Source: a virus. Taken from it: a stretch of DNA of 13,012 nt. The notes under the pieces were generated by a model. It was not told where the DNA came from. It saw only the letters and a list, made by a program, of their open reading frames with translations, and ran no database searches. Position numbers and translations under genes: made by a program. Location: the UHGV virus genome UHGV-0116252. The stretch is one strand, 5' to 3'. How positions within the stretch are numbered: the first letter of the stretch is position 1; each line of letters begins with the position of its first letter. Positions 2,642 through 12,962 of this stretch are shown one piece after another.

Positions 2642-3031
2642 TCAGGCGGCTGCACCCGCCGTTTTCTCGTACTTACTGATAGTGATCTCGACCTTCCCTT
2701 CCGGGATAACCGGTCCCCACTCCACCAGCATTCTTTTCACCTGACTGTCGTCTTCCCACACCCCCGCGTGGGTCAGGGCGTCAAACAGCGCCTTGTTATA
2801 GTTGTCCAGATCGCGGATCCGGTTATCCGGAGGAAACAACACGATCTCCACTGAAGCAGGTGCCGACGTTGGTTTCGGCAGACGACGTAACTGCTCAACT
2901 ATTGCTGCGCACGCCGCACTCTGGAATTTTCGCCCCGCCGCGCTTATCAGGCTCTTACCAGCAAACGCCCCTTTGTTGGGGTGTCGCCAGTACGTGTTCA
3001 CGCTGGGCGGGAAAGGCAGAATCAGCTTCAT
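2642..3031 (-). CDS. rusA: Holliday junction resolvase RusA
   Basis: 129 aa; LPFPPSVNTYWRH and IRDLDNYNKALFDALTHAGVWEDDSQV align with E. coli RusA ([40 protein letters not shown]). ATGA start/stop overlap with the upstream gene. Confidence 0.85.
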   Translation of the reverse strand: MKLILPFPPSVNTYWRHPNKGAFAGKSLISAAGRKFQSAACAAIVEQLRRLPKPTSAPASVEIVLFPPDNRIRDLDNYNKALFDALTHAGVWEDDSQVKRMLVEWGPVIPEGKVEITISKYEKTAGAAA

Positions 3032-3354
3032 ACTTTCAGACCCCTCTCATGTAACCAGTGGGCTGCACGCAGCCTGGCGTTTTCCTCACCGGCAAGCAGT
3101 GAGCGGATAATCCCGACCGCCTCGCTGTCGTCGTCCTTCACCGCGGTATGAAGCGTTATCCCCCGGGCCACGCCACGCTTTATCGTGATGACGCCTTTTT
3201 TCTCCAGTGCGCGAAGATGTTCCACCGCTGCATTCACTGAACGGTATCCCAGCATGGTTGCCACCTCCTGATTGGTTGGCGGGAAGCCACGTTCTTTCTG
3301 GTAAGAAATCAGCATATCCAGCACCTGCTGCTGGCATTGAGTTAACGTCGTCAT
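3028..3354 (-). CDS. LexA N-terminal DNA-binding domain homolog lacking the S24 peptidase domain
   Basis: 108 aa; residues 6-70 (QQQVLDMLISYQKERGFPPTNQEVATMLGYRSVNAAVEHLRALEKKGVITI) closely parallel the LexA winged-helix domain (RQQEVFDLIRDH...[36 protein letters not shown]). No Ser/Lys autocleavage module follows. ATGA overlap with the Dam gene. Confidence 0.65.
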   Translation of the reverse strand: MTTLTQCQQQVLDMLISYQKERGFPPTNQEVATMLGYRSVNAAVEHLRALEKKGVITIKRGVARGITLHTAVKDDDSEAVGIIRSLLAGEENARLRAAHWLHERGLKV

Positions 3355-4004
3355 GCCGCCATCTCCCTGACCAGTTTTTCCGCCTGCTGACGAACCTGCT
3401 CCAGAAACGCCTCACCACATGCCTCAAGTTCATCGCGCCCGATGTAGCTGATTGCCGGTCCCTTCCAGGTCTTGTCGAAAACAGCAATAGCACCAGCGAA
3501 GAAAGCGCCTGTCAGCACCTGCTTCTCGTCCTTCGGGATAAACCAGGCAGGCAGTTCAAAACCAATACGCCCGCGAATAAAAGCAATATGATCTGCATCT
3601 TCCGGCCACCACACTTCGCTGGTGGCAGCTTTGATCAGGAAAACATAGCGCCCGCCCTTATCACGCATGGCACTGGCATGCTTCATGATGTAACGCATGC
3701 CGGTGATGTATTGCCCTTCATGCTGACTGGCGCGGCTGTACGGGGGATTACCAAAGGCAGCACCTTTAAGCTCCGCAAGACGTTCAGACCAGTCATGCGC
3801 CAGCGCGTTGTCTTCCGCAGTGTAATAAGCGGCACATTTGGCGTTATCACCATCAGTGAACAGATCCAGAACAAACGGGCCAAACAGGGTGTTAATTCCC
3901 CAGAAAATGTTGTCCGGCGTGCGCCACTGATCGCCCACTTCCTTCAGTTCATGGGCTGGTTTGTTCCGCAGTTCCACCAGCGCCTGGCAATATTTATTAC
4001 TCAT
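3351..4004 (-). CDS. Phage-type DNA N6-adenine methyltransferase (Dam family)
   Basis: NPPY catalytic motif (AFGNPPYSR) plus an upstream WRTP...DLFTDG block typical of phage Dam methyltransferases. Start set at ATG 4004 (MSNKYCQ), which overlaps the upstream stop as TAATG, rather than the track start at 4037. Confidence 0.75.
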   Translation of the reverse strand: MSNKYCQALVELRNKPAHELKEVGDQWRTPDNIFWGINTLFGPFVLDLFTDGDNAKCAAYYTAEDNALAHDWSERLAELKGAAFGNPPYSRASQHEGQYITGMRYIMKHASAMRDKGGRYVFLIKAATSEVWWPEDADHIAFIRGRIGFELPAWFIPKDEKQVLTGAFFAGAIAVFDKTWKGPAISYIGRDELEACGEAFLEQVRQQAEKLVREMAA

Positions 4005-4492
4005 TAAGCCCCCACGTAATTCCCTGACAGATACCACTCTTCACCCGATGCAGCGCGCTTGCTGCTTTTCCGTAAGCACCGCTCACGACGCGCCAGAAAA
4101 TTGTTTCGTTCTGGCTGGGAGTGGCTTTCACGGAATGCCGCCATCCACACCGTTGCAGCACGACGGTATAGGCCCCTGGACTCCAGTTCTTCAGCCTGGC
4201 GGGTCAGGCACAAAATCACCCGTGGATCGTTAGTGCCGACATAGAAATTGCGCACAGGTCTGGTTTCACGAACTGGTTGTGGTTCCGGCTCCTGCGCTCT
4301 CTCAGTCAGGCGCGGGAAATGTCTGCGTGTATCCCCTTCACAACGGTGAGCCACACGCCCACTCTGACGTAACTTGCTTGCTGACTGCAGAACGCGCTGC
4401 CGTGAGTAACCTGCAAAAGCATCCGCAATGTCTCCGGAAGTACACCCCGGATGGGCTTCAATGAATTTCTGAACTTCATTCAAAAGACTCAT
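4004..4492 (-). CDS. PerC-like transcriptional regulator (tentative)
   Basis: C-terminal segment AEELESRGLYRRAATVWMAAF...ERNNFLARRERCL matches the PerC-family signature as I recall it (LESKGLWRRAA..W). Start placed at ATG 4492 (GGGGG about 5 nt upstream); the track starts at GTG 4498. Confidence 0.45.
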   Translation of the reverse strand: MSLLNEVQKFIEAHPGCTSGDIADAFAGYSRQRVLQSASKLRQSGRVAHRCEGDTRRHFPRLTERAQEPEPQPVRETRPVRNFYVGTNDPRVILCLTRQAEELESRGLYRRAATVWMAAFRESHSQPERNNFLARRERCLRKSSKRAASGEEWYLSGNYVGA

Positions 4493-4494
4493 GA

Positions 4495-5436
4495 TCACCC
4501 CCTGAATCCTGCCGGGATCTGGCTGTAGTCCACGTTGTCGTAACTGGATTTGAAATACGGGTCTTCGCGTTTTTCTGTGTATGTGCTGATGGACGGCGAT
4601 AAGCGCAGGGAAAGCTCATCCCATTTTTCCCGCAGCTTCGACGGGCTGAGCACGTTACGGCACCAGAACGGATCGCGGCTGACGCGGCTGTACATCTCGC
4701 AGATTTGTTTGTGAGTACGACCATCCTGCACACACATCAGGCGAATTTCGTTTGCCCAGGCTGTCCAGTTCGGTTCTTTGGGACGAACCACCTCGCCGTC
4801 ACATTCGGCGGCCTGCTCGTACAGGGCGATGATTTTTTTCCAGAGCCACTGTGCGCAGGTCAAATCATCCTGCGTCCCCCACTGGCGCTTTTTAGGGCTG
4901 AATACAACCGCATCAGGATGGCGAGTTAAAAAATACTGTTCAGCCGTCTGCGTGTCCGGTTGCGAAGCATCCGGACGAGAAGGTTTTTTATCTGACGGAT
5001 CATGTTTTGATTTTACTGACGGATCCCCGCCAGATTCTGACGGGTGAAAACCCGCTTTTTTGCCAGATTTCGACGCATCAAATTTTGACGGGTCAGATTT
5101 TGATGCGTCAGATTTTGACGGGTCAGAATCTGACAGTTGAGAAAATGCCGCTGCCTGAAGCTTCGCAACGTTAAGCTGATAAACATTCGACGCATTGCGG
5201 TTACCCTGGCGACGCGCCTTACGCGTTAACCAGCCTTCTGCTTCCAGCCGTGCGATAGCCGTTCTGACGGTACTCATCCCCGCGCCAATCTGGCGGGCAA
5301 TGGTTTCAATTGATGGCCAGCACACACCTTCGTCATTACTGAAATCAGCCAGGCGGGCCATAATTGCCACGCTGGATAATTTCATGCCTGACGCAGCGCA
5401 ACCATCCCATACATAGCCGGTTAATTTAGTGCTCAT
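4495..5436 (-). CDS. Replication initiator: N-terminal HTH, repeat-encoded linker, DnaT-like C-terminus
   Basis: 313 aa; N-terminal HTH-like segment (SIETIARQIGAGMSTVRTAIARLEAEGW); central low-complexity linker (DPSKSDASKSDPSKFDASKS) encoded by tandem 15-bp DNA repeats; C-terminal end SQIPAGFRG resembles the E. coli DnaT C-terminus (recalled as SQIPPGFRG). ATG 5436 with GAGG 6 nt upstream. Confidence 0.7.
   Translation of the reverse strand: MSTKLTGYVWDGCAASGMKLSSVAIMARLADFSNDEGVCWPSIETIARQIGAGMSTVRTAIARLEAEGWLTRKARRQGNRNASNVYQLNVAKLQAAAFSQLSDSDPSKSDASKSDPSKFDASKSGKKAGFHPSESGGDPSVKSKHDPSDKKPSRPDASQPDTQTAEQYFLTRHPDAVVFSPKKRQWGTQDDLTCAQWLWKKIIALYEQAAECDGEVVRPKEPNWTAWANEIRLMCVQDGRTHKQICEMYSRVSRDPFWCRNVLSPSKLREKWDELSLRLSPSISTYTEKREDPYFKSSYDNVDYSQIPAGFRG
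4990..5138. repeat. Iteron-like direct repeats inside the replication gene (candidate origin)
   Basis: Five tandem 15-bp units at 5064, 5079, 5094, 5109 and 5124 (cagatttcgacgcat, caaattttgacgggt, cagattttgatgcgt, cagattttgacgggt, cagaatctgacagtt), plus degenerate copies at 5031-5045, 5011-5025 and 4990-5003. Lambda ori also lies inside the initiator gene. Confidence 0.6.
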
Positions 5437-5445
5437 GACCGACCT

Positions 5446-5784
5446 CTATTTCCCTGAATTTACGACGAAACTGTTCGAGCGGGCTGAAGCACTCATGCTC
5501 ATAGCCTTCGCGGAGGTAGATAACTCGTTGTGTTTCCGGCTCCCAACGAATGACTCTGACGGGCACTCCGTAGTGATCTTTGAACCAGCGGTTAACTTGT
5601 CGCAAAGGACTGTCTCCTTCTGCCGGTTGAAATCACCCACAGCCCACTCAGCAAAGCTGTGGGTTACAATTTCCCTGTCACCTGGTACATTAACTGCATA
5701 GCAATACTCCACCTTCGCTTTTCCACCCGGTACAGGAAGCGCAATCAGTTGCGAGCGACGGTAGTGTGTTGTTAAACTGTTCAT
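5446..5784 (-). CDS. Hypothetical protein, possibly frameshifted
   Basis: ATG 5784 overlaps the upstream stop (ATGA). The first ~55 codons look protein-like; the C-terminal half is Ser-rich and low complexity, while the -1 frame over 5426..5605 gives a more protein-like sequence ([58 protein letters not shown]). Confidence 0.35.
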
Positions 5785-6344
5785 GCGTTAGTTTCTCCAC
5801 AGTCACGACACGCCACGGCGCCCGGAGCTGCACACTCGCGGGCGTCATTACTTTCTGAAATGCAAAAGATTTTGTAGACCAGTGCTGCATGCTCCTGCAG
5901 CTTCGAAATTGAGAGATACAGCTCGTCGTTAATTGCTGTCTTCTCATGCGGTTCCACCACACCGTCTTCGATTGCCGAACGAATCTGTCTGGAATAACTG
6001 CCAATCTGTTCAATGACTTCCAGCAGGCGCTGGTTAATATCGGCGTTGTCCACATCCTCGACGTCAGGAAGAGACACAAAGACGCCATTTGCAGACTGCG
6101 CCACAGCATCAGCAATGAAGTGAGTGCCACCAGCACGTTGTAAAATCATTGCCCATCCCAGCGGGAAAATCTGATCGCCATCGGCACGAAGGCGGTTAAA
6201 TAATGCGTTTTCTGTTACATCCAGCCAGTCAGCTGCTTCAGCGTAACCACCCGGCAACGCCGCGATAGTTTTTCTGACAGCTTTCACGTACCACTCAGGC
6301 TGTTTTTCTACTTTCCAGTGATGCTTACCCACGGTTAGCCTCAT
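5781..6344 (-). CDS. CII-like / YdaT-family early regulator (tentative)
   Basis: 187-aa ORF directly downstream of the YdaS-like cro gene; the segment [25 protein letters not shown] resembles the HTH region of phage CII-like (CP76/YdaT) proteins as I recall them. Position matches cII in lambdoid maps. Confidence 0.45.
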
Positions 6345-6375: not shown

Positions 6376-6576
6376 TTAATCTTTCGGATAGATATCCGGT
6401 CTTAAGTCAGATTTCGTAATTGCACCTGACGTGCATTGCTCAAGTTTTTTAGCCAGCACAAAACTGGCTTTTTTATAACCATTGAAAACCAGCCGTAAGT
6501 AGCCTGGTGTTGAGCCAACTTTTCCGGCCAACTCACCCTGCTGTTCTTTGGTTAAAGAGTCCCAATACGCTTTCAT
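6376..6576 (-). CDS. Cro-like repressor (YdaS/DUF1019-type HTH)
   Basis: 66-aa product MKAYWDSLTKEQQGELAGKVGSTPGYLRLVFNGYKKA...ITKSDLRPDIYPKD; the C-terminal LRPDI motif resembles YdaS-type Cro. ATG 6576 with GGAGGT 9 nt upstream. Divergent from the CI gene. The track ORF 6376..6879 is an artefactual upstream extension. Confidence 0.7.
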   Translation of the reverse strand: MKAYWDSLTKEQQGELAGKVGSTPGYLRLVFNGYKKASFVLAKKLEQCTSGAITKSDLRPDIYPKD

Positions 6577-6666
6577 ACAATATGTACCTCCGGTATACAT
6601 ATTACATGATTGAGATGAACCTTCAAGATACTTGTACCTTAACGGTACAAGGGTTTTAATTTCGTT
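6577..6666. promoter_or_regulatory. Divergent immunity-region promoters and operators (pR/pRM-like)
   Basis: Perfect palindrome CTTGTACC-ttaac-GGTACAAG at 6631..6651; imperfect palindrome ATATGTA-N9-TACATAT at 6580..6602. Candidate pR on the minus strand: -35 TTGAAG (6626..6621), 16-bp spacer, -10 TAATAT (6604..6599). Candidate pRM on the plus strand: -35 TTGTAC (6632..6637), -10 TTTAAT (6655..6660), with no SD before the CI ATG at 6667. Confidence 0.6.
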
Positions 6667-7341
6667 ATGAAAACAATCCATGACATCCGGCGGTCTAACG
6701 CCAGAAAACTGAGAGATGGTGTTGGCGGGAATTCTTCCTTTGCCACCATGATTGATCGCGAGCCAACCCAGACCAGCAGGTTTATGGGAGATGGTGCAAC
6801 TAAAAATATCGGTGACAGCATGGCACGGCACATCGAAAAATGTTTCGACCTGCCTGTCGGATGGCTTGATCAAGAACACCAGACAACGAACATCACAAAA
6901 AAACCTGACGTTTCAATCACTAACAAACAAATAACGTTAGTCCCTGTCATATCATGGGTACAGGCCGGAGCATGGAAAGAAGTTGGCTATTCTGAGGTTG
7001 ATTTGAGCACAGCAGAAACTTATCCCTGCCCTGTACCCTGTGGCGAAATGACTTATATCTTGCGGGTGATTGGTGATTCAATGATTGATGAGTACCGCCC
7101 GGGAGACATGATTTTTGTTGATCCTGAAGTCCCTGCCTGCCACGGTGACGACGTTATTGCATTGATGCACGATACAGGCGAAACCACCTTCAAGCGGTTG
7201 ATAGAAGATGGAACACAGCGTTATCTCAAAGCATTAAACCCAAACTGGCCTGAGCCTTACATTAAGATTAACGGTAATTGCTCTATAATTGGTACAGTGA
7301 TTTTCTCAGGAAAACCAAGAAGATACATAATAAAGGCCTAA
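6667..7341 (+). CDS. CI-type prophage repressor (HTH plus S24 LexA-like peptidase domain)
   Basis: 224 aa; N-terminal HTH region ending in VGWL, linker, then C-terminal S24 autocleavage domain with Ser motif VIGDSM and Lys motif TFKRL. Divergent from cro. Confidence 0.85.
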   Translation: MKTIHDIRRSNARKLRDGVGGNSSFATMIDREPTQTSRFMGDGATKNIGDSMARHIEKCFDLPVGWLDQEHQTTNITKKPDVSITNKQITLVPVISWVQAGAWKEVGYSEVDLSTAETYPCPVPCGEMTYILRVIGDSMIDEYRPGDMIFVDPEVPACHGDDVIALMHDTGETTFKRLIEDGTQRYLKALNPNWPEPYIKINGNCSIIGTVIFSGKPRRYIIKA

Positions 7342-7352
7342 TCAATATTTAT

Positions 7353-7376
7353 AACCTGCTTCGGCAGGTTTTTTTA
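7353..7376 (+). terminator. Rho-independent terminator after the repressor gene
   Basis: Stem aacctgc (7353..7359), loop ttcg, stem gcaggtt (7364..7370), followed by a run of T to 7375. Begins 12 nt after the CI stop. Confidence 0.65.
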
Positions 7377-7379
7377 TAC

Positions 7380-7412
7380 TTGACAATGTACCTTTGGGAT
7401 ACATAATGTATC
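7380..7412 (+). promoter_or_regulatory. pL-like sigma70 promoter with overlapping operator palindrome
   Basis: -35 TTGACA (7380..7385), 16-bp spacer, -10 CATAAT (7402..7407). Perfect palindrome GATACAT-a-ATGTATC (7398..7412) overlaps the -10, and an ATGTACC half-site (7386..7392) matches the OR half-sites. Confidence 0.55.
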
Positions 7413-7797
7413 TAAAAGAAACACAGCACAGGCAAGATTAAACAAAATTTGGTTGTAACACGGCGTATGGCACATGCGTCGTTAGCGGTCTGGGGACGTT
7501 AAAGGGGACAATCCACTCCTTGCTCGGGCAAACAAACCAGGTAGCCGGAATGTGCAAGCCACAGCCAGGTATGAGCGATTGATTCACCATCAAGGCGATA
7601 CGGTGTGACCACCAGGGAAGAGTCCTGGCTACAACACGAGAGCGCACTTCATCGACTCAACTTTGAGCTTTGTCGTTAAATTTTGAAATGGCGGAGTGCG
7701 CTCCCGGTTGTGGTGAACAGGTGTTTAACGGGAACTCCCTGCCCGTTACCCGGTTCGATTCCGGGCGCCCATCATCAATTTGCTGTGTTTAGTCTTT

Positions 7798-7826
7798 GCC
7801 CAGTCCGCACGATGGGCCATTTTTTC
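7798..7826 (+). terminator. Candidate weak intrinsic terminator within the ORF-poor region
   Basis: GCCCA (7798..7802) pairs with TGGGC (7813..7817) around a 10-nt loop, followed by cattttttc with six T at 7820..7825. Short stem, so weak. Confidence 0.3.
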
Positions 7827-7918
7827 ACACAGCCAGGTTTTATCGCTGTGCCTGAGTCCCCAACAGGAGAGGCCAAACCCGCAGCGTGACACCAGGGAAA
7901 GACCGGAGGAAGTACCAC

Positions 7919-7986
7919 GCCTGACCAGCGTTGACCATGAGCCTGACCAGCTCAAAACAGGAAAGACCAGCCCGGGCCTGACCAGC
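7919..7986 (+). repeat. Three exact copies of the 11-mer GCCTGACCAGC in non-coding DNA
   Basis: Exact copies at 7919..7929, 7941..7951 and 7976..7986, interspersed with related GAAAGACCAG (7961..7970) and TTGACCATGAG (7931..7941). Confidence 0.8.
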
Positions 7987-8126
7987 CCTGTACGGTCGTA
8001 ATGGAAACATAACGACGCCGGAAACGTAACCGGCACCCTTTAGATGGCAAAAGACCCGCACAAGGCGGGCCAGTTACCCCGAACGGCGACCAAACCATTC
8101 GGATTTATCACAAGTGACCAAACTTG

Positions 8127-8142
8127 TGATGAGGAAAGACCA
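8127..8142 (+). repeat. Copy 1 of conserved 16-nt motif TGATGAGGAAAGACCA, followed by ACG not ATG
   Basis: Same motif as at 8527 and 11699, including the GAGGA Shine-Dalgarno core; preceded by the hairpin TCACAAGT-gaccaa-ACTTGTGA (8108..8129). The position corresponding to the start codon reads ACG (8143..8145). Confidence 0.7.
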
Positions 8143-8191
8143 ACGACAGAGCCGCTGATCGGTTCTGAGTATACCCCACTAAGGAGTCGCT

Positions 8192-8542: not shown

Positions 8543-10756
8543 ATGACCATTTTTAACGGCTTGTTAGAAGCGAAAAAAGGCGCGCTCAAAAACGGCGCGA
8601 TCCCGGCGCTGGCCATCGCCATCGACGCCCCTAACAAAAAAGTTGCCGAGAACATCATCATCGGCAAATTGTGGGAAGCCTACCCTGACCACGGCGACAA
8701 CTATTTCAAACCTAAAATCTGGGAAGATGCCCCGGGCCAACCGCGCCCAGGCGTTGGTGAGTTTGATGAGACGTTCGCCACAGAACACAGTTTTGATGGC
8801 GAAAAATGGGTAGTTAACACCCCCGTTGTAGATAGCGGTTCAGCAGATATCGCACAGGTTAACGACCTGATGAAACTGCCGGCTCGTGAACGATTCGCCG
8901 CCGTTCTGCTGTTCAGCCACGACGCCAACGAAGTCGACAGTGAATTGCTTGCGCAGACGCGTGAATACCTAGAGATGCTCGACAACAGTGATACTGACAG
9001 TGAGGATGAGGTTGACGCATTTAACCGCATCGTTCTTGATGCCATGGTGGCGTGTAAGCCCATCGAGTACATGCATATTGCTGGATTGAATAATCTGGTA
9101 CATGCAATTTTGGCAAGTTGCGATACCCAGGAACAAAACCCGACCAGTTGGACTATCTCCAAATTTATAAAAAAATGGGTAGAGAATCCCGGTAAACGCG
9201 ATGAAATGCTGCCGGAGGTAAAACTAGAAACAGCATCCGCACGTCCTTACCAACAGACTCACGCCACACTGGAACGTGAAATTGCCTGCGCCCTGTTACC
9301 CGTTGGCCCGGAAAAAATCACCCCCAGCGTCCTGAAAGCGGCAGACGAAATAATCAGCCAGGACCGGGAGGATTTTAAACGCTGGTCAATGGCCTTGCGC
9401 ACAACGGATCAGATCCTTGCCTATGACCGCGCATCAGTATTCGGTGTTATTCAGCGCGCCCCCGCAAAAGACACGTACCACTTCCCGCAATCCCTGCGCA
9501 GTCACATCGACAACTGGCTGCAAGCTAACGGGCAGCGTGATGCAAATGCTGTTGAAGAGAAGCCAAAGGAAGCAGCACCAAAGGATGATGTAAAAGTCAC
9601 CAACCACGGCGGCGGGCGATTCTCAATTGATGGAATGATGTCAGAAACACCCTCAAATCAGGGCGAAAAAAGCGAAGCAGCAAATGCTGGAGAACGTAGT
9701 TTGCAGCAGTTGCGTGAGCGGTTTGTCACGCCTCGCCATGTGTATGACGTACCTGAAAATAACGCCGTCTCACAGAGGGAACCTGCAGCTATTACCCCGG
9801 CAGAAGAGACTCCTCCACAAGAAAAACTTAGCGAGCAGGTAAAGGATCTGGTGCAGAACGTTGACGCGCTGGTTGAGCGGATCCATACCGAAGAGCACAA
9901 GCGGCAGAATGCAATCTCAGCTATCGAAACGGAGTTAAAGGACTCCGACGACACAGATAACCTGGCATTGTGGAAGAACGTATTCAAAACCGATGAGCGC
10001 TTCACCAGTGCTTTCTCTCAGAACGGCGGCGGCACATCCATCAACGGCACTTATATAGCGATGAAAGCGACTCGCGAATTTGGGCCGTTTGGTATTGGCT
10101 GGGGTGTAGAGGTGGTGGAAGAGCGTTTTGATAAAGGCGCACCGATAGTTCGCAAAAAACAGGTTGGTGAAAAAATAGAATGGGATCTGATTCAAGACGG
10201 TGTTGGCGGGTACCTATGTGAAATGCACCACACCATGAAAGTTAGAGTCTGGTACATATTGAATGGAGTGCGCGGTGAGTCCGAGGCTTACGGATGCACA
10301 CCTTATATCTACGACACTAAATACGGACCAACAAGCGACGGCGAAGCACCGAAGAAATCCTGGACGGATGCTGTTAAGAAAGCGCTATCCCCTCTCGGAT
10401 TCAGCGCCGATATTTTCATGGGCCTGTACGACAATCCGGAATACCGCCAGAGGAATAAAGCTGAGTTTGATATCAAGAATGCCAGCGAGAATGCGGAAGA
10501 TGCTACCCGTCTGCGTAAGGAACTGGATGAGAAGCTTATCAACGTTGCCAATACGCTGGCCTCCGCGGTAACCACTAACGAAGTAAACAAGGTATTTGGC
10601 CTCATCGCCCGCGAAGTGGATGTACACCGAAAAGCAGCAGAAGCCAAAGGCGATAAAGAATATTCATCGTATCTGGGATCGCGCCTGCGCCGTATCACCG
10701 ACATCAAAACTGAACGCCTCGCCGCCCTCACCGCTGCACAGGAGCAAACCGCATGA
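8543..10756 (+). CDS. Rad52/Sak-type single-strand annealing protein with an unrecognised ~490-aa N-terminal region
   Basis: Uninterrupted 737-codon ORF. C-terminal ~250 aa carries Rad52-fold blocks: GGGTSINGTYIAMKATREFGPFGIGWG (compare human RAD52 [27 protein letters not shown]), KVRVWYILNGVRGESEAYG, and KKSWTDAVKKALSPLGFSADIFMG (compare [21 protein letters not shown]). N-terminal 490 aa has no motif I recognise and includes an acidic stretch DNSDTDSEDEVD. Confidence 0.7.
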   Translation: MTIFNGLLEAKKGALKNGAIPALAIAIDAPNKKVAENIIIGKLWEAYPDHGDNYFKPKIWEDAPGQPRPGVGEFDETFATEHSFDGEKWVVNTPVVDSGSADIAQVNDLMKLPARERFAAVLLFSHDANEVDSELLAQTREYLEMLDNSDTDSEDEVDAFNRIVLDAMVACKPIEYMHIAGLNNLVHAILASCDTQEQNPTSWTISKFIKKWVENPGKRDEMLPEVKLETASARPYQQTHATLEREIACALLPVGPEKITPSVLKAADEIISQDREDFKRWSMALRTTDQILAYDRASVFGVIQRAPAKDTYHFPQSLRSHIDNWLQANGQRDANAVEEKPKEAAPKDDVKVTNHGGGRFSIDGMMSETPSNQGEKSEAANAGERSLQQLRERFVTPRHVYDVPENNAVSQREPAAITPAEETPPQEKLSEQVKDLVQNVDALVERIHTEEHKRQNAISAIETELKDSDDTDNLALWKNVFKTDERFTSAFSQNGGGTSINGTYIAMKATREFGPFGIGWGVEVVEERFDKGAPIVRKKQVGEKIEWDLIQDGVGGYLCEMHHTMKVRVWYILNGVRGESEAYGCTPYIYDTKYGPTSDGEAPKKSWTDAVKKALSPLGFSADIFMGLYDNPEYRQRNKAEFDIKNASENAEDATRLRKELDEKLINVANTLASAVTTNEVNKVFGLIAREVDVHRKAAEAKGDKEYSSYLGSRLRRITDIKTERLAALTAAQEQTA

Positions 10757-11322
10757 GCACCGCTATCGCTATTGCAAAAGAATATGCCAGCCTGATTGAC
10801 CTGCTGGAAACCTCCGACGAACTGACGCCAGAGATGATCGCCGACACGCTTGAAGGTATGGAAGGAGAACTGGGAGACAAACTGGACGCCATGATGGTCA
10901 TCTGCCGCAATTTACAGGGCAATGCCAATACCTGCGCTGAAGAAATGTCTCGCCTGGCTACCCGTAAGACGTCCTTTGAAGGCAAGGAAAAAGCAATCCG
11001 AAAGCATATGCTCGCCTGCCTGCAAGCTGCTGGCCTGGATAAACTGAAAACCGCAAAAAACACATTTACTGATGCACAGGGGGCTATCCGGGTAATTATC
11101 GATAGCAAAGATAAGATCCCGGATGAGTATGAAGGCGTGTCACTTGTTGATGTAGAAACGGTTATTACACCAAACAAGCGAGCCATTAAAGAAGTGATTG
11201 AATCTGCGGAGGCGGTTGCCGTCGAAATACTGGCGCGTGGAGAAACACCACCAGCCGAGTTATTAAACCCGGTACCAGGCGCACATCTGGAACGCGGCGA
11301 ACGTTCACTGAGGGTACGCTAA
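10753..11322 (+). CDS. Siphovirus Gp157-like protein (recombination-module accessory), tentative
   Basis: 189 aa, start overlaps the annealase stop (ATGA). Coiled-coil-like N-terminus, then IPDEY and PGAHLERG motifs that I recall as typical of the Gp157 family, which commonly sits next to Sak/Erf-type annealases. Confidence 0.55.
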   Translation: MSTAIAIAKEYASLIDLLETSDELTPEMIADTLEGMEGELGDKLDAMMVICRNLQGNANTCAEEMSRLATRKTSFEGKEKAIRKHMLACLQAAGLDKLKTAKNTFTDAQGAIRVIIDSKDKIPDEYEGVSLVDVETVITPNKRAIKEVIESAEAVAVEILARGETPPAELLNPVPGAHLERGERSLRVR

Positions 11323-11778: not shown

Positions 11779-11977
11779 ATCAAAGCAATGTGAGGCTCTT
11801 CGCCGGGCTGGAATTTTCTTCATGGAAAGGGCTGACGGGCACCCAAAAACAACCTGGGGCCATTTCATGAACCCAATAAAATTTCGCAATTTACAGGAGG
11901 TGACGACGCGAAAAGATGATGAACCTGATTTTGGAGCAATATTTAATGGCCGGAAAGAGAAAGAACCCAGCAGATAA
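11714..11977 (+). CDS. Excisionase-like small DNA-binding protein (DUF4224-like)
   Basis: 87 aa directly upstream of and overlapping the integrase gene; the segment ITREEMVELTGSPLKSKQCEALRRAGIFF resembles DUF4224 proteins that precede phage integrases. Confidence 0.55.
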   Translation: MRSDHDIITREEMVELTGSPLKSKQCEALRRAGIFFMERADGHPKTTWGHFMNPIKFRNLQEVTTRKDDEPDFGAIFNGRKEKEPSR

Positions 11978-12962
11978 CTGGATGCCGCCTCGTGTTTACC
12001 AGGGCAAAGCGGCCTACGAATTCAGGAATAAAGATAACAAAGCGATACGCCTGTGCGCATTGGATGCGCCACGATCAGCCGTATGGCTGGCATATGAAAA
12101 AGCGGTCGGTGACGAAAAAGAAAGAAATACTTTTCAGGCGCTCGCGGAACAATTCATGACCTCCCCTGATTTTATGGATTTGGCAGTCGAAACCAGGAAA
12201 GACTACACAAAATATTCCGGAAAAGTTCTGCCTGTCTTCGGGAAGATCGACCCGGATAAAATCAAACCTGAACATATTCGGCGCTATATGGATCAACGCG
12301 GTTTATCAAGCCGAACTCAGGCAAACAGGGAAAAAAGCTTTATGTCCAGGGTATTCCGTTGGGGTTATGAACGAGGTTATGTCCAGAGGAATCCTTGTCA
12401 GGGAGTTAAGCAGTTTAAAGAGACAGCACGCGAACGTTATATTACGGATGAAGAATATCAGGCCGTTTATGAAGTATCTCCTGATGTTGTTCGCGTGGCA
12501 ATGGAGATTGCCTACTTATGCGTGGCCAGACAGAGTGATGTACTTTCATTGCAGAAAGACCAGCTGTTCGATTCCGGGATCTACATTCGTCAGGGAAAAA
12601 CCGGCGTTAAGCAAATCAAAGCCTGGTCGCCTCGTCTGCAGAAAGCGATAGCTCTGGCTCGTTCTCTGCCATTAAAACCGGGAATCAGTAGCCTGTTTGT
12701 GATTCATCAAACTACCGGAGGCAAGTACACCCGTGATGGTTTTAACTCTCGTTGGCGTGATGTCAAAGCGGCAGCACAGGAAAAATATCCTCATCTGCAA
12801 ATAGACTTCACATTTCATGATCTGAAAGCAAAAGGTATCTCTGATCTGGAAGGCAGCCTGGAAGAGAAGCAAGCAATTTCCGGGCATAAGAACCCACGAC
12901 AGACAGCAGCATATGACCGAAAAGTTAAAGTAGTGCCCGTAGTTGGTGGCCAGAGAAAATGA
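11916..12962 (+). CDS. int: Tyrosine recombinase (lambda-family phage integrase)
   Basis: C-terminal catalytic region aligns with lambda Int: ARQSDV (Arg I), FTFHDLKAK (His, with Lys where lambda has Arg311), ISGHKNPRQTAAYDRK (His and Tyr nucleophile). Start is ambiguous: ATG at 11916, 11946 or 11982. Confidence 0.9.
   Translation: MMNLILEQYLMAGKRKNPADNWMPPRVYQGKAAYEFRNKDNKAIRLCALDAPRSAVWLAYEKAVGDEKERNTFQALAEQFMTSPDFMDLAVETRKDYTKYSGKVLPVFGKIDPDKIKPEHIRRYMDQRGLSSRTQANREKSFMSRVFRWGYERGYVQRNPCQGVKQFKETARERYITDEEYQAVYEVSPDVVRVAMEIAYLCVARQSDVLSLQKDQLFDSGIYIRQGKTGVKQIKAWSPRLQKAIALARSLPLKPGISSLFVIHQTTGGKYTRDGFNSRWRDVKAAAQEKYPHLQIDFTFHDLKAKGISDLEGSLEEKQAISGHKNPRQTAAYDRKVKVVPVVGGQRK

Follow-up and report, generated by a model that had tools for sequence, protein, structure and literature searches.

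We examined the replication initiator gene (4495-5436, minus strand; 313 amino acids (aa), ATG start, stop codon 4495-4497) of UHGV-0116252, a 13,012-nt stretch of viral DNA, referred to below as the window, which contains the early region of an E. coli or Shigella lambdoid prophage. The encoded protein is a homologue of lambda O from end to end, with the exception of its extreme C-terminus, where we found a tail that resembles the end of E. coli DnaT. The same tail occurs on unrelated domains in other initiators of enterobacterial phages, many of which are followed directly by a DnaC-like gene. We suggest that it couples initiators to loading machinery of the DnaC type. We are confident of the identity of the protein and of the modularity of its tail; the statement as a whole, with the coupling to DnaC-type machinery included, is modestly favoured by the evidence.

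A DnaT-type tail on the initiator

The initiator ends in ...SSYDNVDYSQIPAGFRG. A first, sequence-only reading of this DNA had likened its last residues, SQIPAGFRG, to the DnaT end SQIPPGFRG, and the translated gene of E. coli K-12 (NC_000913.3, b4362) confirmed the likeness with 8 of 9 residues identical. The tail comprises residues 292-313 (4498-4563, minus strand, with the core nonapeptide at 4498-4524) and follows the consensus (D)VNxIS-PD-x-x-IP-x-GFRG-COOH, the window version being ...NVDYSQIPAGFRG. In a BLASTP comparison of the initiator with DnaT, this terminal stretch was the sole significant segment (E 0.009). The match is more than a chance resemblance, because relatives of the window protein at about 55–65% identity end in ...VNHISEPDTEIPPGFRG or ...DVNAISEPDNTIPEGFRG and match DnaT over ~17 residues, because hhalign placed the phage C-terminal region on the DnaT alignment with a probability of 93.9% (E 1.6e-7, 21 terminal columns only), and because almost every one of the 120 retrieved DnaT orthologues keeps the tail, with I-P-x-G-F-R-G near-invariant at the extreme C-terminus. 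PHROG 22793 matches residues 280-313 alone (E 7e-8). Judged by these alignments, the tail is homologous to that of DnaT, with the homology limited to the last ~17–21 residues.

The sequence-only reading had further proposed an alignment of residues ~180-313 to DnaT. This proposal fails: only the tail is DnaT-like, and residues ~172-280 correspond to the C-terminal domain of lambda O. We could find neither PF17948, the three-helix domain with which DnaT binds single-stranded DNA (ssDNA), nor the N-terminal oligomerisation domain and the acidic PriB-binding linker of DnaT in the initiator, and BLASTP aligns the tail only. With both DnaT domain tests negative and the tail alone in common, the initiator is not a DnaT. 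The automated label 'primosomal protein (I)', which the gene bears in SfII, SfIV, mEp460 and others, evidently comes from the tail alone and overstates the relationship to DnaT.

Two known peptide motifs were compared with the tail. A beta-clamp-binding motif (QL[SD]LF or QLxLxL) was rejected, as the Q varies among tails (TEIPPGFRG, KTIPTGFRG, SAIPPGFRG) and position 4 is Pro/Gly, not Leu. Mimicry of the SSB C-terminus (DDDIPF) was kept as a lead only, since the Phe of the tail is not C-terminal. Within the searchable literature, the tail motif is neither mentioned nor given a function in any paper we found, and a search for YdaU, a tailed protein of the Rac prophage, yielded nothing relevant.

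The domain content bears on one possible role of the tail, namely that the initiator mimics DnaT in the restart primosome, with the tail engaging PriA and/or PriB and loading proceeding via the PriA-PriB-DnaT pathway. The tail is indeed common to the initiator and DnaT. PriA binds the C-terminal tip DDDIPF of SSB, and the acidic residues followed by I-P-x-G-F in the tail are loosely similar to this tip, although this similarity is a lead only. In addition, the Rep protein of Salmonella phage SPN1S has the whole C-terminal domain of DnaT, which docks to PriA in structures from cryo-electron microscopy (cryo-EM) (PMC13377028). In these preprimosome structures, however, PriB lies on the acidic DnaT linker and PriA on the three-helix domain, while the tail is given no role (PMC13377028), and the initiator has neither this linker nor this domain. 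A PriA/PriB role also leaves unexplained why, among the IMG/VR matches listed (see below), tailed initiators go with DnaC-like genes but in no case with a P or DnaB-like gene. We consider such a role improbable. From the DnaT-like recruitment route put forward in the sequence-only reading, an origin-binding initiator with a DnaT-like C-terminus and no helicase or loader of its own is retained, but the parts that contact PriA and PriB are absent.

A lambda O-type protein in front of the tail

The initiator matches PHROG 391 ('replication initiation O-like') over its full length (E 9e-135), and the whole protein aligns with lambda O by BLASTP (E 1e-24). Near its N-terminus lies a winged helix-turn-helix (wHTH; residues 23-70, 5227-5370, minus strand; Pfam HTH_36, PF13730, E 4.3e-11, with weaker matches to GntR, DnaD_N and RP-C), which presumably binds the iterons described below. 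The C-terminal helical domain of the lambda O type (residues about 172-280; 4597-4923, minus strand) was recognised by a profile match: a profile of initiator residues 162-313 matches lambda O residues 151-281, its P-interacting domain, with 127.5 bits (E 2e-41), and residues 173-277 are 40% identical to lambda O. AlphaFold2 predicted a compact helical domain at residues about 189-278, with a block-mean pLDDT (predicted local distance difference test) of mostly 87–96, and disorder of the last ~30 residues, with block means of 46–55. A homologue search with the C-terminal region gave mainly fragments (at least 48% identity), and it was an exhaustive search of representative proteins that exposed the kinship with lambda O.

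On these grounds the initiator is best classified as a lambda-O-family member with a swapped tail. Three of the four features that define this family are present; the one that failed is the P partner with an NTDW tail. By itself the protein is an ordinary one, a mosaic variant that is very common and belongs to a kind of initiator already known.

The tail moves between unrelated domains

Tail-bearing initiators have at least four unrelated pre-tail domains and six types of N-terminal domain. Type A is the true three-helix domain of DnaT, found in SPN1S Rep. Type B, a 'W.EW..YR...GYQGLF' domain, occurs in Rac YdaU (a DUF1376 protein, which ends in VNTVSLPDSAIPPGFRG), Gifsy-1 O and Klebsiella phage BUCT711 Rep, and type C, a 'YP.RAG.NPKK.AF.AW' domain, in Stx phage POCJ13 gp16, phage Tritos Rep and P0110. 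Type D is the lambda O C-terminal domain of the window initiator. P0110 has the exact tail of the window protein on a different domain, together with the same downstream genes. As these combinations show, the tail is a recombining cassette that is attached to unrelated pre-tail domains in enterobacterial phages.

The similarity extends upstream of the tail in some cases. Tail and linker of the window protein (...REDPYFKSSYDNVDYSQIPAGFRG, about 30 aa; 4498-4590) are 76–96% identical to those of L007:5001-5753 and of Stx2c/Stx2a phages despite a different C-terminal domain, so the exchanged cassette includes the linker and goes beyond the nonapeptide. SPN1S Rep (Uetakevirus, NC_016761.1; L006:2748-3563) has the complete C-terminal domain and tail of DnaT behind an unrelated N-terminal domain. 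With DnaT residues 86-179 it shares 63% identity (E 3e-41; Pfam DnaT, E 3.9e-18), which means that the C-terminal half of DnaT circulates in phage replication modules, as DnaC does.

Conversely, one domain can bear different tails. The exhaustive search with the type D profile found 9,593 representative proteins, and the GFRG tail is present in 12 of 139 newly listed top matches to this profile. In the family of the lambda O C-terminal domain we observed recurrent, mutually exclusive tails, namely NTDW(I/A)YG.., DFDNTDWAEGL, HWNS.EAWE.FI, EWNTEEGWRGML, IPxGFRG and DDSEGDPQFRF; this set was drawn from the best 139 profile matches listed, lambda O, phi80 gp15 (L376:1976-2884) and Vibrio phage K66 (L374:2105-3034). 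Lambda O (L011:187-1086) ends in LDLTNTDWIYGVDL, and the O homologue of the Vibrio phage has yet another tail. The NTDW type accompanies P-like loaders in lambda, phi80 and Edno5.

This modularity is relevant to the suggestion that the tail is not a docking motif at all, and that it serves in ssDNA binding or in the formation of a cooperative filament at the melted origin, with GFRG as an aromatic-plus-arginine element. Measurements on DnaT speak for it, as the dissociation constant for ssDNA goes from 12.9 to 27.1 µM and the Hill coefficient is lower when residues 84-153 are compared with residues 84-179 and the full-length protein (PMC4132743). However, since four unrelated domains carry the tail, an oligomerisation specific to one domain is unlikely. 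The tail moreover follows a linker predicted to be disordered, and a near-invariant I-P-x-G-F-R-G end with a strict correlation to the loader type is typical of a peptide that binds in a pocket. We find a role in ssDNA binding very unlikely.

Tail type and downstream loader type

IMG/VR was scanned for DNA encoding PDxxIPxGFRG followed by a stop codon. This gave at least 120 loci, in which every ORF (open reading frame) was classified against reference loaders and helicases. Among the matches listed, to which all counts for these tail loci refer, the initiator is followed by at least 900 nt of sequence in 109 loci. In 65 of them a DnaC-like gene begins -7 to +6 nt from the initiator stop codon (in one case at +237). 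The other 44 are loader-less, and nowhere in any of the 109 loci was there a gene similar to lambda P or DnaB. The initiators form 29 clusters at 90% identity, in which six N-terminal types are combined with four pre-tail domains. The largest cluster (at least 90% identity) has the architecture of the window protein, HTH_36 plus lambda O C-terminal domain, with a length of 330 aa; a DnaC-like gene is present in 16 of its 24 loci and absent from 8.

The initiators of other module types served as controls. All 78 initiators upstream of lambda-P-like genes end in TNTDWIYGV(D/E)L, and the GFRG tail is found in 0 of 73 initiators upstream of P22-gp12-like helicases. Phi80 gp15 ends in NTDWAYGVIR and Edwardsiella Edno5 O in NTDWIYGVQL, and a P-like gene follows both. 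Thus, within one family of homologous C-terminal domains, the extreme C-terminus tracks the type of loader. These counts go against the view, taken in the sequence-only reading, that the tail is an alternative to a dedicated loader, given the DnaC-like gene directly after most tailed initiators, and the 16 of 24 loci with such a gene argue against a loader substitute even within the architecture of the window protein. A better reading is that the tail most likely serves to link the initiator with a loader of the DnaC type, which would here have to be the host DnaC.

DnaC-like genes also follow the tailed initiators named above: Rac YdaU is followed by YdaV, a DnaC homologue, and Gifsy-1 O and POCJ13 gp16 by DnaC-like genes. 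The phage DnaC-likes are 48–50% identical to E. coli DnaC. E. coli dnaT itself lies 2 nt upstream of dnaC, with the order and spacing of the phage pairs of tailed initiator and DnaC-like gene, which suggests that dnaT-dnaC may be a domesticated phage module. The pairs compared were dnaT-dnaC (L001:3239-4518), Rac ydaU-ydaV (L003:3120-4730), Gifsy-1 (L004:2583-4312) and POCJ13 (L005:2583-4325). A84 of DnaC, the site of dnaC1331, which blocks the PriA/PriB pathway, is invariant in DnaC and the Rac, Gifsy-1 and POCJ13 DnaC-likes.

Another gene recurs in these loci. A DUF977 gene (PHROG 142, 'Ren-like exclusion protein') is present in 40 of the 94 tail loci with at least 1,800 nt downstream and also at L010:3601-4023. 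It comes next after 31 of 38 loader-less tailed initiators and after the DnaC-like gene in 9 of 56 cases. As it follows both kinds, the DnaC-like gene behaves as an optional cassette between the initiator and the ren-like gene. Compared with the DnaC-coupled class, the window has the tail and lacks the downstream DnaC-like gene, and it looks like the loader-less form of this class.

The same counts have to be weighed for the possibility that the tail makes direct contact with host DnaB, or with some other shared protein of the replisome (DnaG, SSB), and that the loader merely accompanies DnaB. All tailed initiators come from phages of Enterobacterales, which are obliged to use the host DnaB, the tail is far more conserved than the 48–50% identical DnaC-likes, and it is present with or without a phage-encoded loader. 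Yet the P-type modules use host DnaB as well and are never tailed, and the adjacency of tailed initiator and dnaC-like gene, mirrored by dnaT-dnaC, suggests a functional pair. Direct binding to DnaB or another replisome protein is in our estimate unlikely.

No loader gene in this prophage

The early operon of the window contains no DnaC-like, lambda-P-like or DnaB-like gene, and on this point the sequence-only reading was right. Pfam and PHROG scans of the window ORFs revealed no member of the DnaC/IstB, lambda P or DnaB families, and the best tblastn result on the window with E. coli DnaC, three phage DnaC-likes, lambda P and P22 gp12 was a 52-aa out-of-frame fragment (E 0.01). A loader just outside the window, which that reading had named as a possibility, was not found either: the loader and helicase references gave 0 matches in 80 near-identical viral loci with 4-kb flanks, and 0 matches at E<=0.1 in the complete 41.5-kb genome of SfII, whose initiator is 98.7% identical to that of the window. 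The 80 loci came from a search with an alignment of the C-terminal domain, which gave 97–99% identical loci only; they are thus replicate loader-less contexts and provide no contingency table within the family. SfII and SfIV have been isolated and characterised as phages (PMC3851460). As there is no phage helicase or loader, host DnaB must be recruited without a phage loader. SPN1S, BUCT711, Tritos and P0110 share with the window a tailed initiator without a loader gene.

The gene directly after the initiator encodes a PerC/YfdN-like protein of 164 aa (4004-4498, minus strand; Pfam PerC, E 7.8e-9; NCBIfam ANR_neg_reg; PHROG 1324 'transcriptional activator', E 8e-79). The gene occupies the position of lambda P, with an overlap between its start codon and the initiator stop codon. 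We observed a wHTH-like N-terminal half and a C-terminal half of the PerC/ANR family; the protein is not a recognisable loader. This position nevertheless raises the question of a loader that exists but is unrecognised, either this protein or the DUF4222 protein encoded upstream of the initiator, in which case the tail would be incidental. The overlap with the initiator stop is exactly that of P with O in lambda, the PerC-like gene follows the initiator in all sister loci examined, and the replacement of loaders by non-homologous phage genes is documented. On the other hand, the protein is a PerC/ANR-family regulator with a wHTH N-terminus, and we detected no feature that would suggest helicase binding. 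The next gene is a different one in other loader-less tailed modules (DUF977/Ren-like, DUF1064 nuclease, Dam), and the Ren-like gene also follows DnaC-like genes, so that it is merely the next gene. We judge a hidden loader to be highly improbable. This applies to the PerC-like as well as to the DUF977/Ren-like next gene.

Proposed role of the tail

We propose that the tail acts as a short linear docking motif for DnaC-type loading machinery, that is, for DnaC or the DnaB6-DnaC6 complex. The iteron-bound initiator would bring host DnaB-DnaC to the opened origin via its tail, in parallel to lambda O, which brings P-DnaB. The same reasoning would give the DnaT tail the task of delivering DnaB-DnaC to the PriA-PriB preprimosome, and a phage DnaC-like gene, where present, would be a dispensable private copy. 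In this prophage the loader coupled to the tail would be the host DnaC, because there is no phage loader gene. The predicted disorder of the tail is expected of a docking peptide.

Several points weigh against this proposal. The partner of the tail is deduced from the gene neighbourhood only, and DnaB alone as the partner fits the data equally well; for DnaC or DnaB-DnaC as the specific partner, our confidence stays a little short of even. A cryo-EM paper of 2026 suggests that the N-terminal domain of DnaT, not the tail, recruits DnaB/DnaC (PMC13377028). Truncation of DnaT residues 154-179 reduces the affinity for ssDNA about two-fold and also cooperativity (PMC4132743), which would fit a tail that acts on DNA or on oligomerisation. 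A P-like protein is the partner of DopC, which was compared here by its domains and consists of HTH_36 and a DnaT C-terminal domain (PMC5509034). Furthermore, the loci are not independent, as many are near-identical prophages, and initiator and loader are inherited together, so the perfect contingency table overstates the evidence. Finally, the scan pattern PDxxIPxGFRG with its stop codon excludes the DYSQIPAGFRG variant of the window itself.

Published work describes the recruitment of DnaB/DnaC by DnaT as unknown in its mechanism (PMC13377028; PMC11087952). The comparative pattern of tails links this question, recruitment by PriA-PriB-DnaT, with that of how lambdoid phages that encode only O replicate, and it offers a peptide of 9–17 residues, common to DnaT and a large class of phage initiators, as a specific candidate for the DnaB-DnaC recruitment element. 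A broader and more tentative extension, which we regard as possible but doubtful, is that DnaT and this initiator class recruit DnaB6-DnaC6 through the IPxGFRG tail, which would be the element missing so far, that dnaT-dnaC is a domesticated phage initiator-loader module, and that the tails of the lambda O family form a 'loader code', with NTDWxYGV for P, IPxGFRG for DnaC and others for other hosts. If true, such a code would explain the replication of O-only lambdoid phages. If the hypothesis is wrong, the initiator is one more mosaic lambda O homologue.

A candidate origin inside the initiator gene

The linker-coding part of the gene (residues about 98-150) contains an array of iterons with a period of 15 bp (TCTGACSCRTCAAAA on the gene strand) at 4987-5143, which from its sequence is a candidate origin. 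A repeat search returned these as families D1/D2 with a spacing of 15 nt. The iteron pattern has eight matches, all located at 5035-5128, against a chance expectation of 1.37 for the whole window, and none of 200 shuffles reached eight. An A-rich stretch lies directly downstream of the array on the gene strand. The same layout is seen for the origins annotated in the records of lambda, P22 and phi80.

Gene content of the window

The window covers the complete early region, from the antiterminator gene Q (50-844) through the integrase gene (11916-12962). Across 2.5 kb round the initiator gene it shares 97–99% identity with the Shigella phages SfII and SfIV as well as with several induced phages of E. 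coli, and the SfII and SfIV initiator genes themselves are 97–99% identical to the window gene. The gene is present in full length in 1,576 of 5,426 complete E. coli genomes, and any match was found in 2,723 of the 5,426 (about 30–50%).

The early-right operon is encoded on the minus strand and begins with a cro-like gene (around 6376-6660); cI lies on the plus strand at 6667-7341. Next in the operon come a YmfL/CII-like regulator (5781-6344; NCBIfam YmfL, E 1.3e-49; Pfam Phage_CP76; PHROG 1170; also by RefSeq annotation) and the DUF4222 protein (5446-5784) just upstream of the initiator. Beyond the initiator and the PerC/YfdN-like gene, Pfam matches identified a Dam methylase (3351-4037), a 108-aa protein that consists of a LexA DNA-binding domain only (3028-3354, E 2.9e-19), RusA (2642-3031), a KilA-N protein (1813-2622), a DUF968/HNH protein (816-1811) and, at the end of the operon, Q, all on the minus strand. 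The 108-aa protein, which is encoded in the nin-like region, is missing the S24 peptidase domain and could be a non-cleavable LexA mimic.

The leftward operon encodes a 737-aa exonuclease-family protein, a Gp157/Gam-like protein and the integrase. The 737-aa protein (8543-10756, plus strand) matches PHROG 2489 'exonuclease' over its full length (score 1299) and has zero Pfam matches. The next gene (10753-11322, plus strand) encodes a Sipho_Gp157 protein, 'Mu Gam-like' according to PHROG, and the resulting recombination module at 8543-11322 is unlike lambda Red and P22 Erf. The ~850 bp that separate cI from the first leftward ORFs (7342-8190) contain just short ORFs, which overlap and occur on both strands. 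Scans for Rfam families and tRNAs gave no match in the window, and no N-like antiterminator gene was recognised in it; the 7342-8190 region may hold a regulatory RNA or a nut/put-like site.

Comparison with known replication systems

The closest counterparts of the initiator are lambda O and phi80 gp15. They have in common with it an N-terminal winged-helix origin binder, iterons in the linker-coding DNA and a homologous C-terminal helical domain, in which the window protein has a 10-residue insertion relative to both, and the operon position after cro and cII is the same as that of lambda O. The difference lies at the end: lambda O and phi80 gp15 terminate in ...NTDW(I/A)YGV.. and are followed by a P-type loader, whereas the initiator terminates in IPxGFRG and is followed by no loader gene. 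With E. coli DnaT it shares a tail after a flexible linker at the extreme C-terminus, with the 8/9 identity noted above; DnaT, however, is a restart factor, while the initiator is an origin-specific phage protein.

The pairs Rac YdaU-YdaV, Gifsy-1 O-DnaC and POCJ13 gp16-gp17 resemble the window in tail and operon position. Unlike the window, they have their own DnaC homologue, and their initiators carry other pre-tail domains (the DUF1376-associated 'W.EW..YR..GYQGLF' or 'YP.RAG.NPKK'). Modules that contain only O have been described for phage LLS and 34 of 314 Enterobacteriales lambdoid phages, and their replication is called 'not yet understood' in passages of Zheng et al. 2025 (PMC12315714). 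Such modules consist, like that of the window, of a single gene for a lambda O homologue with no helicase or loader, and a DnaT-type tail is not mentioned in these passages (PMC12315714). LLS, the one O-only phage that has been grown experimentally, did not occur among the tblastn matches listed.

A precedent for a chimera of O and DnaT is DopC of Cellvibrionales/Oceanospirillales, in the literature a lambda O that was domesticated (Brezellec et al. 2017, PMC5509034); DnaC, too, is regarded as phage-derived (PMC5509034). Like the initiator, DopC combines an HTH_36 N-terminus from lambda O with a C-terminal element derived from DnaT (PMC5509034). In DopC this element is the three-helix domain (HHpred match to 2ru8), and the protein is chromosomally encoded, has no iterons and works with the P-like partner DopE (PMC5509034). 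The initiator of the window, in contrast to DopC, has kept the C-terminal domain of lambda O and shares only the tail with DnaT.

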